Shown here one piece after another: positions 49,113-53,787 of a stretch of DNA of 64,000 bases. Source of the stretch: Escherichia coli (GTDB taxonomy: Bacteria > Pseudomonadota > Gammaproteobacteria > Enterobacterales > Enterobacteriaceae); assembly GCF_002854065.1 (NCBI RefSeq), contig NZ_CP024147.1; one strand, given 5' to 3'. The position numbers and the translations under genes are program-made. The first letter of the stretch is position 1; every line of letters starts with the position of its first letter. The notes under the pieces were generated by a model that had not been told where the DNA came from, did no database searches, and saw only the letters and a list, made by a program, of their open reading frames with translations.

Positions 49113-50483
49113 TTATGCCTGGCGAATTGCCTGTTCAACATCAAAGCGATTCGTCACTTTGCTGTCGATTTTCACATAAGCTGAATGTTCTTCTTCTGCA
49201 ATCAACACTTCTTTGATGCCTTCAGTTTCTAGCAAACGCACTTTTAACGCCTCGTTTGCGGCAATGTTCGCCGGGATTTCAATGCGCAAGCTGCTGACAT
49301 ACGGCGGTTCTTTCATGGTACTGGCGACTGCCAGCCACACTGCGGCCAGCATTGCGCCAGCGAGAAATACGCCCTGACCGTCAAACATGCCGTCAATCCA
49401 GCCGCCCAGTGAACCGCCAATCGCCACGCCAAGAAACTGGCTGGTGGAGTAAACACCCATCGCCGTACCTTTGTAACCTGCTGGCGACTCTTTACTGATA
49501 AGTGAGGGCAGGAGGGCTTCCATCAAATTAAACGCCACAAAGAAAAGCTGCACGCCGACCACCAGTTGCCAGAACTGCGTTTGCGCGTTCCACAACACAA
49601 TTTCCGCAACCACGATCAACCCGACGCAGAAGACAAAGACTTGCTTCATTTTGCGCTTAACTTCAGCGTAGATAATGAAAGGCACGACCGAGCCAAAGGC
49701 GATTAGCATTGTCGCCAGATAGACCTTCCAGTGTTCAGCCGCCGGGAACCCCGCATCAGCCAGTTGTCCGGGCAGGGCAACAAACGTCGACATCAGCAAA
49801 ATATGCAGACACATAATGCCAAAGTTGAGTTTCAGCAGCCGCGGTTCCGCCAGCACTTTACTGAAACTGCCTTTCACCATTCCGGACTCACGATTAAGTA
49901 CGTGAGTGCTACTGTTGGGCACAACCCAAATGGTCAACGCAATGCCGGTCGTTGCCAGAATAGCGATCATCCAGAACAGCGCGTGCAGCCCAAGTTTGTG
50001 AGTGATGATCGGGCCAAGCACCATCGCAATGGCAAAGGTAATGCCAAAGCTCACGCCGATAAACGCCATTGCTTTGGTGCGGTTTTGTTCGCGCGTGAGA
50101 TCGGAAAGCAGCGCCATAACGGCAGCGGCAATCGCACCGGAGCCTTGTAGCGCCCGACCCAGAATAATTCCCCAGATGGAGTCAGAGAGCGCAGCGATAA
50201 CGCTACCGGCGGCAAACACTGCCAGCCCACCGACAATTAATGGTTTGCGACCAATGCGGTCGGAAAGCAGGCCAAACGGAATCTGAAAAACGGCCTGAGT
50301 CAGACCATAAATACCAATGGCAATACCGATTAATGCTTCGCTGGCACCTTGCAGAGCCATGCCGTACGTGGTCAGAACCGGCAGAACCATGAACATGCCC
50401 AGCATGCGCAACGAGAATACGGTCCCTAAACCCCAGGTCGCGCGCCGCTCACCTGGTGTCATTTTATAATCGTTCATTACCAC
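49113..50483 (-). CDS. yajR: MFS transporter YajR
   Basis: 456 aa, 12 TM-like segments, C-terminal soluble tail; MVMNDYKMTPGERRATWGLGTVFSLRMLGMFMVLPVL. Confidence 0.9.
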   Translation of the reverse strand: MVMNDYKMTPGERRATWGLGTVFSLRMLGMFMVLPVLTTYGMALQGASEALIGIAIGIYGLTQAVFQIPFGLLSDRIGRKPLIVGGLAVFAAGSVIAALSDSIWGIILGRALQGSGAIAAAVMALLSDLTREQNRTKAMAFIGVSFGITFAIAMVLGPIITHKLGLHALFWMIAILATTGIALTIWVVPNSSTHVLNRESGMVKGSFSKVLAEPRLLKLNFGIMCLHILLMSTFVALPGQLADAGFPAAEHWKVYLATMLIAFGSVVPFIIYAEVKRKMKQVFVFCVGLIVVAEIVLWNAQTQFWQLVVGVQLFFVAFNLMEALLPSLISKESPAGYKGTAMGVYSTSQFLGVAIGGSLGGWIDGMFDGQGVFLAGAMLAAVWLAVASTMKEPPYVSSLRIEIPANIAANEALKVRLLETEGIKEVLIAEEEHSAYVKIDSKVTNRFDVEQAIRQA

Positions 50484-50883
50484 CTCTTAAAAAAATGCCC
50501 ACATAGTGTAGTGCGGAGCGCATGTTGGGTAAACAGAGTGTTAATGAGAAAATATTACAGAGGAGAATAATTTGTGTGTCAGGTATGTTTTTTGCATTCA
50601 TAAAATGAATGCTCTATATGTTGAAAAAATGAATTTTAAAGCTAAATAGTTTTACATCAAAAAAATAATAATATCATTTCTTGATTACCATGTGCATTTT
50701 TTATCTTACGAATATGCTAGTTTTATCTTACTAAATAAACGATTTGGTGACATGGATGATAATGTTTCAGGCTAAATGTGTGCTTATTACTTGGGCCTTT
50801 ATGGCACTGTATTTATTCATTAAATGGATGTTTGGTGGTTAATTATTATGGAAGTATATGACAGTGAGGACATAAAGGTATAC

Positions 50884-51819
50884 ATGTTAACTAAAAGAAT
50901 ATTATTTTCTTTAATGCTAATAGTTTCACCAGGCGTGGTGGCAAGCGAGAAAGCGCATGAATTGTATGACAGCATATACGGTGGTCAACCTGCGCCCGAT
51001 GTTATAAATACACTGCATAAAATGGCTGAATTGGGAGATGTCGACGCGCAGAGCCTGTTAGGCTGGGAATATTATCAGCCTCGCTATGATACCAAACCTG
51101 ATGTTCAGGAAGCGATTAAATGGTTCGAGTTAGCCGCTAAACAAGGTGACAGAGAAGCTCCGTTAGCGCTGGGGAGTATCTACTACATCGGTGAGCTGGT
51201 GCGGGTGGATTATGCCAAAGCGTATGCACTATTTAATCAGGCCGCGCAATACGGTGTGAATTTAGCATGGTCCAGGTTGGGCATGATGTACGCCAATGGT
51301 CAGTATGTTGAGGTAGATTGTAAGAAAGCGAAGGAATATCTTGATAAAGGTGTCCACATTTATGGTGGTCCGGAAGACTTTCTGGCTACATGTCGAAAAG
51401 ACATGATTGACAGAAAAACGGTTGACGATACGTTACCCGTGATCACGGTTACCCGTTCTGGGATGCGGGATAATTTTTTAGATAAAGATTTTTCCTGCAT
51501 GGATAGCCTCTTCGCCACCACCAATAAATTAGGCGAAGTGGCCAATCTTCGCGTGACATTCAGCATTCGTAGCCCATCCGGTAAGGAGATTAACCAAACG
51601 GTTGGCTTCGCGCCTTTCGGTTTAAACCGGCTGAATATTAGCTTTACTGATTACATATTTGATTCATTTACCAGTAATTCGTCTCTAATTCTTTATAAAC
51701 CGGAATTTGAGCGAAAATCTTGTGCAACTGTAAGGACCACAATCGTTGCCGCAACGGCAACCATTAACGGCAAGGATGTGGAGTTGCTGAAAGCGGGGGC
51801 AATTGAACAAAAGTGGTAA
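50884..51819 (+). CDS. Sel1-repeat (TPR-like) secreted protein with uncharacterised C-terminal domain; accessory
   Basis: ATG at 50884 after AAAGG RBS; signal peptide MLTKRILFSLMLIVSPGVVASE; Sel1 repeats (DAQSLLGWEYY, AIKWFELAAKQGDREAPLALGSIYYIGELVRVDYAKAYALFNQAAQYG, LAWSRLGMMYANGQYVEVDCKKAKEYLDKG). Confidence 0.75.
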   Translation: MLTKRILFSLMLIVSPGVVASEKAHELYDSIYGGQPAPDVINTLHKMAELGDVDAQSLLGWEYYQPRYDTKPDVQEAIKWFELAAKQGDREAPLALGSIYYIGELVRVDYAKAYALFNQAAQYGVNLAWSRLGMMYANGQYVEVDCKKAKEYLDKGVHIYGGPEDFLATCRKDMIDRKTVDDTLPVITVTRSGMRDNFLDKDFSCMDSLFATTNKLGEVANLRVTFSIRSPSGKEINQTVGFAPFGLNRLNISFTDYIFDSFTSNSSLILYKPEFERKSCATVRTTIVAATATINGKDVELLKAGAIEQKW

Positions 51820-51874
51820 CGCTGCTCAGCCCCCGGCTAAGGCAAAACTTGCCCTGGCGGGTGGCGATAATAAT

Positions 51875-52417
51875 CTAAGCCGCGAGAATATGCTGAATCG
51901 CCAAAAACATAGGTACAGCACCAAAAGCATTTGGTGTCGCTGAAAGCTGAACAAAGCCGAGACGAGCATAAAAGTTAATGGCGGCAGGGTCAGCATCAAG
52001 ATAAACCCCTTTAATTGGTAATGCCTGGTGAATTATTTTTACATGTTCAAAAAAATCACATAGTAGGTCCTGACCAAAGCCCCGCTTTTGATACTTCCGC
52101 GCCACCCCCAACATGACTAATCTGACAACACCAATCTCTGAAGGCTGTGAACCCTGAAGGACGCCAGAAACGCGTTGTTTTTCCAGCGAATATGCCGTAA
52201 AAGTACAGATGCCAATCAGTTCACCACTTTGTCTGTCAATAAGTGCTTTAGCCGCACAGTCGCTATTACGCACACTTTTCTTTAGCGATGTGCGTACAAA
52301 TTTATCGATAACAGGGTTACCGCAATCAAACTGTTTTTGCCCAGGATAAGTAATATCAGACTGATAATTACAGGAGAGGACTATGGGCAGAGTAATCTCT
52401 TCATGCTTGTCGACCAT
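51875..52417 (-). CDS. GNAT-family acetyltransferase, predicted type II toxin (TacT/AtaT/ItaT-like)
   Basis: 180 aa; FDCG motif near N-terminus, acetyl-CoA motif QKRGFGQDLL; overlaps upstream RHH/DUF1778-like ORF by 17 nt. Confidence 0.8.
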   Translation of the reverse strand: MVDKHEEITLPIVLSCNYQSDITYPGQKQFDCGNPVIDKFVRTSLKKSVRNSDCAAKALIDRQSGELIGICTFTAYSLEKQRVSGVLQGSQPSEIGVVRLVMLGVARKYQKRGFGQDLLCDFFEHVKIIHQALPIKGVYLDADPAAINFYARLGFVQLSATPNAFGAVPMFLAIQHILAA

Positions 52418-52712
52418 CGCTGTTTTTCCTTTTCATTAACGCCTTGAGTGCGAGCGTCGGTTGAGCAGGTTCGGCGATGAGTTGGTTCATCAGTTCCCAG
52501 CTTTGATTCGAAAGCTCACGGCGACGTTGGTTATCAAGCACGCTTTCGGCGCGTTCCATAGCAGCGCTCAAAATAAAGGCGCTTAAATCTAACCCAACGG
52601 CTTGCGCAGCTTCACGAAGTCTGTTTTTGGCGTCGGGACTGGTTTTGAGTTCAACCCGCGCATTTTTCAGCGTTTTATCGACATCGGGTAGAGTGGCTGT
52701 TTTTCCAGGCAT
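52401..52712 (-). CDS. predicted antitoxin (DUF1778 / ribbon-helix-helix-like) of the GNAT toxin
   Basis: 103 aa from ATG at 52710-52712 with AAGAGG RBS; MPGKTATLPDVDKTLKNARVELKTSPDAKNRLREAAQAVGLDLSAFILSAAMERAESVL; track ORF extends further upstream (52778) but lacks RBS. Confidence 0.7.
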   Translation of the reverse strand: MPGKTATLPDVDKTLKNARVELKTSPDAKNRLREAAQAVGLDLSAFILSAAMERAESVLDNQRRRELSNQSWELMNQLIAEPAQPTLALKALMKRKNSDGRQA

Positions 52713-52765
52713 TGTGACCTCTTTGATTAACTGAATGAAATCGTAGGGAGTCGATCTCATACATA

Positions 52766-52784
52766 ATACGGCTATCAACCGTAT
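52766..52784. promoter_or_regulatory. operator-like palindrome 1 upstream of the toxin-antitoxin operon
   Basis: atacgg ctatcaa ccgtat (ATACGG-N7-CCGTAT). Confidence 0.4.
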
Positions 52785-52819
52785 GATTAATTTATGTGCA
52801 TCTGCTCACTCTGTCAAGA

Positions 52820-52840
52820 GATACGGTTATTAGCCGTATC
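52820..52840. promoter_or_regulatory. operator-like palindrome 2 upstream of the toxin-antitoxin operon
   Basis: gatacgg ttattag ccgtatc (GATACGG-N7-CCGTATC), same half-site as palindrome 1. Confidence 0.4.
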
Positions 52841-52854
52841 TCTGATCTCAGACA

Positions 52855-52884
52855 ATAAAAAAGGTGCCGTAGCACCTTTTTAAT
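52855..52884. terminator. bidirectional hairpin terminator downstream of cyoE
   Basis: aaaaaa ggtgc cgta gcacc ttttt. Confidence 0.55.
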
Positions 52885-52896
52885 AGAGAGGTTTTG

Positions 52897-53787
52897 TTAC
52901 CACACAGCAGCCAGCAGCGTATGCGAGTCCGGTACCATAAAATCAACGGACATCATCACCGAGAGGGCAGTGATGGCGATGATAGAGAAGCCGAACAGCT
53001 TGCGCGCCCAGATTCTGTCATCAGCAACCTTATAACCGCGCAGGGCCATACCTAACCACCAGACGCTCACCGCCGCGGCGACCACCAGATATTTATATCC
53101 AGCGTAACCGCCAAGAGAGAGCATCAGCGTGGCAACGGCAAAGGCGATGATATACAGCGTGATGTGATTCTTCGCCACCGAAATGCCTTTTACCACTGGC
53201 AATACCGGAATGTTTGCCGCCTGGTAATCCTTAAAGCGGAAAATGGCGATGGCATAGGAGTGAGGCATCTGCCACAGGCTGAAGATAGCCAGCAGGATCG
53301 CTGCGCCGCTATCGAACTCGCCGGTTACTGCACAGTAGCCAATCACCGGCGGCGCAGCGCCGGAGAGCGAACCAATCAATGTGCCGTAGACTGAGTGGCG
53401 TTTCATGTACAGGCTATAAACGCCGACATAAACCACAAAGCCCATCACCCCCAGCCAGCAGGCCAGCGGATTCGCGCCAAACCACAGCAGCATAAAGCCA
53501 GCAATACCCAGCAAGGTGGCGTACACCAGCGAGACAGCAGGAGAGATCAGGCCTTTAACCAGCACCCGATTCTTCGTCCTTTCCATCTTTCTGTCGATAT
53601 CCCTGTCGATGTAGTTGTTAAACACACAACCCGACGCCACAACCAGTGACACCCCAACCAGCGTGTAGATAAACAGGGGATAATCAATGCTGCCCTTTGA
53701 GGCCAGCAGGAATCCCCCAATCACCGAGATCAGGTTGCCAAAGATGATGCCTGGTTTCGTTACTTGCAGGTATTGCTTAAACATCAT
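52897..53787 (-). CDS. cyoE: protoheme IX farnesyltransferase (heme O synthase)
   Basis: [32 protein letters not shown]... 296 aa; start trimmed to ATG at 53785-53787. Confidence 0.95.

Follow-up and report, generated by a model that had tools for sequence, protein, structure and literature searches.

Two palindromes bracketing the predicted promoter of Escherichia coli itaRT as candidate operators of the ItaR–ItaT complex

Two related palindromes lie upstream of the toxin–antitoxin operon itaRT in the 64,000-bp stretch of Escherichia coli DNA that was analysed (the window). They are almost certainly repressor-binding sites for autoregulation by ItaR and ItaT, with binding at these exact positions being what we infer. 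It is very likely that they are the itaRT operators, that each takes one ItaT–ItaR2–ItaR2–ItaT hexamer, and that the two complexes would jointly exclude RNA polymerase. As such they are an ordinary autoregulatory operator pair, newly placed for itaRT. The autoregulation of this operon had been published but was previously unmapped, and it can now be pinned to two 17-bp candidate sites and a defined predicted promoter. The reading of the palindromes as operators, made in the initial annotation, draws on three independent lines of evidence: the match of the core sequence and of the DNA-reading residues to those of KacA, a footprint in 14 loci, and the published repression of a fragment from upstream of itaRT.

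The proximal operator (O_P) is the 19-mer ATACGGCTATCAACCGTAT at positions 52766–52784, identified in the sequence, by motif search and by a repeat finder. Its 17-bp core, TACGGTTGATAGCCGTA when read on the minus strand, occupies 52767–52783, or approximately −1 to +16 of the predicted transcript. The distal operator (O_D) is GATACGGTTATTAGCCGTATC at 52820–52840, containing the ATACGG-N7-CCGTAT 19-mer at 52821–52839; its 17-bp core, TACGGCTAATAACCGTA in the minus-strand reading, lies at 52822–52838 (approximately −56 to −40). The two 19-mers are separated by 36 nt. The sequence thus agrees with the initial annotation, which described two palindromes with shared half-sites and 7-nt spacers that are 36 nt apart and sit upstream of the antitoxin gene. 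The antitoxin ATG (52712, minus strand) is 54 nt from O_P and 108 nt from O_D, both sites being upstream of it. A search of the whole window that allowed one mismatch returned exactly two ATACGG-N7-CCGTAT sites. In shuffled versions of the window 0.06 sites were expected, and two or more were found in none of 100 shuffles. Chance occurrence is excluded by these shuffles, and by the restriction of the motif to the upstream regions of antitoxin genes that is described below.

In each 17-bp palindrome the centres of the half-sites are 12 bp apart, approximately one helical turn, so that they are presented on the same face of the DNA. In the window the repeat finder extends the arms of O_D to 10 bp, AGAGATACGG and CCGTATCTCT, at 52817–52843. 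This extension is specific to the window and is absent from the other genera. Position 52820 differs in FORC_042 and 2013C-4974, two of the three E. coli strains compared, breaking the seventh pair of the O_D arms. The conserved unit is the 17-mer TACGG-N7-CCGTA plus near-invariant inner positions, and the consensus for the clade is R-TACGG-CTRWYAG-CCGTA-Y.

Both genes of the operon are on the minus strand. itaR (52401–52712) encodes a ribbon-helix-helix antitoxin of the DUF1778/TacA family with 103 amino acids and a mass of 11.4 kDa (PF08681, E = 2.3e-17), and itaT (51875–52417) encodes a GNAT acetyltransferase toxin of 180 amino acids and 19.8 kDa. The latter matches PDB 7BYY, which is E. 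coli ItaT(G115D), over residues 1–180 with E = 1.6e-117. The computed masses of 11.4 and 19.8 kDa equal the published values for the two proteins in E. coli HS (Wilcox et al. 2018). Given the full-length match to 7BYY and the agreement of the masses, we assign the operon on its sequence as itaRT of E. coli. The best solved relatives of ItaR are the KacA chain 5ZGN_A (phmmer E = 3.5e-11) and AtaR. The two genes overlap by 17 nt (52401–52417) in different frames, which suggests translational coupling.

The initial annotation preferred a short antitoxin, starting at 52712, and this choice is well supported. A Shine-Dalgarno sequence AAGAGG can be read at 52718–52723 (minus strand), 5 nt before the ATG, RefSeq annotates itaR as a 312-nt gene, and orthologues from other genera have their first methionine at the corresponding position. 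The published mass of 11.4 kDa fits a protein of 103 amino acids, and not one of 125. The alternative start is a TTG at 52778. It is located inside the proximal operator only a few nucleotides from the predicted start of transcription, and was rejected on account of this position and the misfit of its 125-amino acid product with the published mass. An AlphaFold2 model of the ItaR monomer was poor (pLDDT 69), with the N-terminal strand built as a helix; it was set aside because the strand of a ribbon-helix-helix protein forms only in the dimer.

A consensus promoter scan of 52300–53100 found a single promoter-like site, on the minus strand with a score of 10/12. It has a predicted −35 hexamer TTGACA at 52812–52817 and, 17 nt after it, a predicted −10 hexamer TAAATT at 52789–52794. 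From the position of the −10 hexamer, transcription is predicted to start at an A at 52782, 7 nt past it. The O_D core ends 4 nt upstream of the −35 hexamer and the O_P core begins 5 nt downstream of the −10 hexamer. The operators therefore abut or overlap the predicted core promoter of the operon, a layout that is kept in 14 loci. Beyond O_D lies the intrinsic terminator of cyoE (52858–52881, minus strand), which is also present in E. coli strains that lack itaRT.

Related loci were collected by scanning one genome per species with an alignment of the ItaR clade. This yielded 21 loci of approximately 5 kb each, from Pseudocitrobacter, Edaphovirga, Buttiauxella, Rahnella, Phytobacter, Trabulsiella, Chimaeribacter, Serratia, Kluyvera, Xenorhabdus, Superficieibacter and three Nitrospirae MAGs. 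All 21 contain TACGG-N7-CCGTA with at most one mismatch. The 29 exact matches are all upstream of the antitoxin gene, no more than approximately 300 nt away from it, and none was found elsewhere in the 21 loci. Twelve of the loci have two sites, and together with the window and a paralogue of ItaR (L033–L035) they give 14 two-site loci. The order of elements is the same in all 14: O_D, 4–5 nt, TTGACN, 17 nt, TAnnnT, 4–10 nt and O_P. The centre-to-centre distance between O_D and O_P is 54–60 bp among these loci, with a mode of 57 bp, and is 55 bp in the window. Because this spacing varies, neither a fixed helical phasing nor obligatory cooperation between the sites can be inferred from it.

An alignment of 13 of the two-site promoters (A2) has a mean column identity of 59%. 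Its invariant columns comprise only the four half-sites, two inner positions per operator, TTGAC and TA...T. The O_D half-sites are invariant in the 13 aligned loci, representing 10 genera, and also in the paralogue, whereas the flanking DNA varies; those of O_P are invariant save for two loci with a degenerate left arm. Such a pattern of conservation amounts to a clean phylogenetic footprint, with two candidate operators and a predicted sigma-70 promoter.

Other arrangements were seen among the related loci. Five Xenorhabdus loci have kept solely the site upstream of the −35, that is the distal one, and Superficieibacter has only the proximal site at the start. In the three Nitrospirae MAGs, where the antitoxin is 43–49% identical, a single site fills the 17 nt that separate TTGACA from the −10. 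In E. coli IAI39 the otherwise invariant first base of a proximal half-site is changed from T to C (CACGG; window position 52783), so damage to at least one of the sites is tolerated in natural strains. In four ItaR-clade loci the antitoxin start lies approximately 200 nt from the proximal operator (L002:2289–2500, L004:2292–2500, L034:2797–3000 and L010:2302–2475). The hairpin GGCGT-aagaaac-ACGCC is conserved in three of these four long leaders, and each of the four has an upstream open reading frame of 16–21 codons that has a GGAG of its own; MKFTANVFNLNRFRCIF and MRNQSKALNFSRFIKLS are examples. This reading frame may encode a leader peptide through which the translation block imposed by the toxin is sensed. 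A long leader of this type is absent from the window locus.

The core of the itaRT palindromes is one that has been crystallized with a related antitoxin. The DNA in the co-crystal of the Klebsiella pneumoniae KacT–KacA2–KacA2–KacT complex (PDB 5ZGN) is the 27-bp AAATGTACGGTTATTAACCGTACATGA (Qian et al. 2019, PMC6698736). It was "adapted" from the natural kacAT site, which we have read from the genome as TACGGAAAATAACCGTA. The TACGG-N7-CCGTA core of itaRT is identical to that of the 5ZGN DNA (GTACGGTTATTAACCGTAC), and the 5ZGN spacer TTATTAA is one base apart from the plus-strand spacer of O_D, TTATTAG. In 5ZGN each palindrome arm has its own KacA dimer to read it, with base contacts from R8 to G9/G20, from D10 to C8/C18 and from R12 to G5; the contacts of these three residues fall on G5, C8, G9 and G10. 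KacA R8, D10 and R12 align with R19, E21 and K23 of ItaR, two of the three being conservative substitutions. Across 24 ItaR-clade sequences K23 never varies, and the conservation of R19 and E21 is 90% or higher. Given the contacts in 5ZGN and the conservation of the aligned residues, the arginine and acidic residues of ItaR would be expected to read the invariant CGG of the half-site.

Both clades have preferences outside the core. The half-sites of the KacA/AtaR clade have T-G before TACGG (G in 14 of 14) and free inner positions, and those of the ItaR clade conform to R-TACGG-C-T-R, where 60 of 62 half-sites have T as the second inner base. We considered whether the outer base switches from G to A in a one-for-one match with the replacement of KacA R12 by ItaR K23. 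This was rejected, since 36 of the 62 ItaR-clade half-sites have A at the outer position and 26 have G; the contrast holds only between the clades. A search of metagenome contigs for exact copies of the KacAT crystal operator gave one unrelated match, with no toxin–antitoxin genes adjoining it.

The regulation of itaRT has been studied with a reporter by Wilcox et al. 2018, who cloned the region from −183 to −11 upstream of itaRT before galK. The fragment had approximately 40-fold the activity of a promoterless control. ItaR together with ItaT, or with catalytically dead ItaT, cut this activity to near background, and ItaR alone had no effect (Wilcox et al. 2018). ItaR was not found to be acetylated in that study. 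If the numbering is from the start codon, the fragment (approximately 172 bp) is probably 52723–52895, with both sites inside it. Neither Wilcox et al. 2018 nor Zhang et al. 2020, the two papers on itaRT found in the library searched, mentions an operator, palindrome or inverted repeat for itaRT. The palindromes had been put forward in the initial annotation as candidate operators of the antitoxin. That they are operators stands, but not that the antitoxin would act on them alone, given that ItaR alone does not repress the published reporter; the sites are thus better regarded as operators of the ItaR–ItaT complex.

How the complex might act can be modeled on its relatives. Each TACGG half-site would be read by the two-stranded β-sheet of one ItaR ribbon-helix-helix dimer, and one ItaT–ItaR2–ItaR2–ItaT hexamer would set two such dimers on one palindrome, with a stoichiometry taken from KacAT and AtaRT. 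The toxins would keep the two ItaR dimers spaced so that each meets its arm of the palindrome. A hexamer that places two dimers on each palindrome would make the toxin necessary as a co-repressor. When bound to O_D (approximately −56 to −40) the hexamer would abut the −35 element, and when bound to O_P (approximately −1 to +16) it would cover the start of transcription; both complexes together would exclude RNA polymerase. For KacAT and AtaRT repression is reported to be strongest at a toxin:antitoxin ratio of approximately 1:2 and to be relieved by excess toxin. By analogy, excess ItaT would derepress itaRT.

It might be argued that only the proximal palindrome works, and that the distal copy is a duplicate that is vestigial or can be dispensed with. 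The loci of the KacA/AtaR clade have one palindrome just past the −10, and Superficieibacter retains the proximal site only, both as this would predict. However, the distal half-sites are those that remain invariant in the 13 loci, the 10 genera and the paralogue amid variable DNA, the distal site is always 4–5 nt from the −35, and the Xenorhabdus loci retain the distal and not the proximal site. Salmonella TacAT has moreover been reported to bind two sites in its promoter. We therefore consider a redundant distal site to be improbable.

Two further explanations are each less probable still. The 91-nt leader of itaRT folds with the proximal palindrome as an 8-bp hairpin, with a z-score of −2.3, so the palindrome might serve as a 5′-terminal mRNA hairpin for stability or translation and not as a DNA operator. 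Yet the predicted start at 52782 falls inside the 5′ arm of the hairpin, and a second copy of the same sequence stands upstream of the −35, outside the transcribed region. The arms are also kept as the specific TACGG and CCGTA, and not through compensatory changes, and Rfam gave no match in 50400–53000. A role in the mRNA is very unlikely on these grounds; the hairpin could be a by-product of an operator at +1. It is just as hard to believe that the palindromes bind an unrelated host regulator, or that they are a repeated genomic element or a terminator. A scan does flag 52766–52784 on the plus strand as terminator-like, but its 'T tail' comes from reading the −10 region on the opposite strand, and there is no plus-strand gene with its end in the vicinity. 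The real terminator is that of cyoE at 52858–52881, and an intrinsic terminator at the palindrome was rejected. A dispersed element of the REP type was likewise rejected, with two copies in 64 kb and none elsewhere in the related loci. The motif is found just twice in the window, in the other loci it lies upstream of antitoxin genes only, in many genomic contexts, and both sites are within an inserted segment. A pair of operators for the ItaR–ItaT complex is thus very much the preferred reading.

The inserted segment is a variable one of 2.37 kb (50488–52853) that replaces 95 bp of the K-12-type spacer between yajR and cyoE. It contains itaRT, the promoter and both operators, together with a gene for a Sel1-repeat protein (50824–51819, plus strand; PF08238). 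E. coli without itaRT shares sequence with the window only from 52854, at the cyoE terminator, onward. As both palindromes are inside the segment, the operators travel with the genes. Of 5426 complete E. coli genomes, 1368 have the itaRT segment at this yajR–cyoE position.

ataRT is on approximately 1620 of the same 5426 chromosomes. Both modules were found together in 395 complete genomes (a concatenated query gave 2599 records and 2994 places), compared with approximately 410 expected if they were independent, and these are approximately 29% of the genomes with itaRT. Strain JX21CE8 (NZ_CP178438.1) is one that carries both. It is therefore common for a cell to have two repressors whose operators share a core. 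itaRT occurs together with a plasmid KacA-like module in approximately 31 genomes, against 38 expected. The ItaR paralogue noted above (P0057) is 68% identical to ItaR, has the same reading strand KNARVELKTS and has two operators. It adjoins a YagK/YfjJ-family gene and IS66 or Mutator-type transposases, in draft assemblies labelled E. coli. As a partner of itaRT in cross-talk it was rejected, since it was found in none of the 5426 complete E. coli genomes.

The ItaR clade has a layout of two sites bracketing the promoter, against one site in the structurally studied kacAT and ataRT. We can suggest, tentatively and with considerable doubt, that modules of GNAT toxins and ribbon-helix-helix antitoxins share an operator core and are told apart only by clade-specific flanks, and that ItaRT and AtaRT either cross-regulate or are insulated by the flanks plus the second ItaR operator. 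If true, toxins linked to persistence would be joined in a small regulatory network or separated by an insulation code. itaRT is found in a quarter of complete E. coli genomes, and cross-talk or insulation at the operators is testable in the natural co-carriers of ataRT.

kacAT of Klebsiella pneumoniae is like itaRT in having the TACGG-N7-CCGTA core, a DUF1778 ribbon-helix-helix antitoxin and a GNAT acetyltransferase toxin that is a co-repressor. Its operator is in the position of the itaRT proximal site, 5 nt past the −10 and spanning the start of transcription. The difference is that kacAT has one palindrome, whereas itaRT has two that bracket the promoter. The reading residues are R/D/R in KacA and R/E/K in ItaR, and the antitoxins are only distantly related. 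kacAT, four plasmid paralogues and the chromosomal ataRT all have one palindrome each, just past the −10.

ataRT of E. coli O157:H7 resembles itaRT in having a palindrome, GTACGG-N7-CCGTAC, right after the −10. Its promoter (L036 and L037, 545–575) also contains an orphan TACGG 7 nt past the palindrome and just before the Shine-Dalgarno sequence. Unlike itaRT it therefore has one full palindrome and one orphan half-site, and its locus is livJ–panM. A structure of AtaR and AtaT with DNA was reportedly described by Jurenas and colleagues in 2019. According to reviews the repressor is the AtaRT heterohexamer, and the antitoxin alone binds weakly. The weak DNA binding of AtaR alone parallels the failure of ItaR alone to repress.

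For tacAT of Salmonella enterica, the promoter is reported to have two separable sites for the complex, at −81 to −46 and −46 to −6 (VanDrisse et al. 2017, PMC5449658). TacT acetylates TacA and so modulates its binding, whereas ItaR was not found acetylated. The two-site promoter of tacAT means that two sites are not new for this family. Beyond the family, in relBE (relO), ccdAB and FitAB, antitoxin dimers bind adjacent half-sites that overlap the promoter, with the toxin as co-repressor. The proteins, the half-site sequences and the toxin folds of these three systems all differ from those of itaRT.
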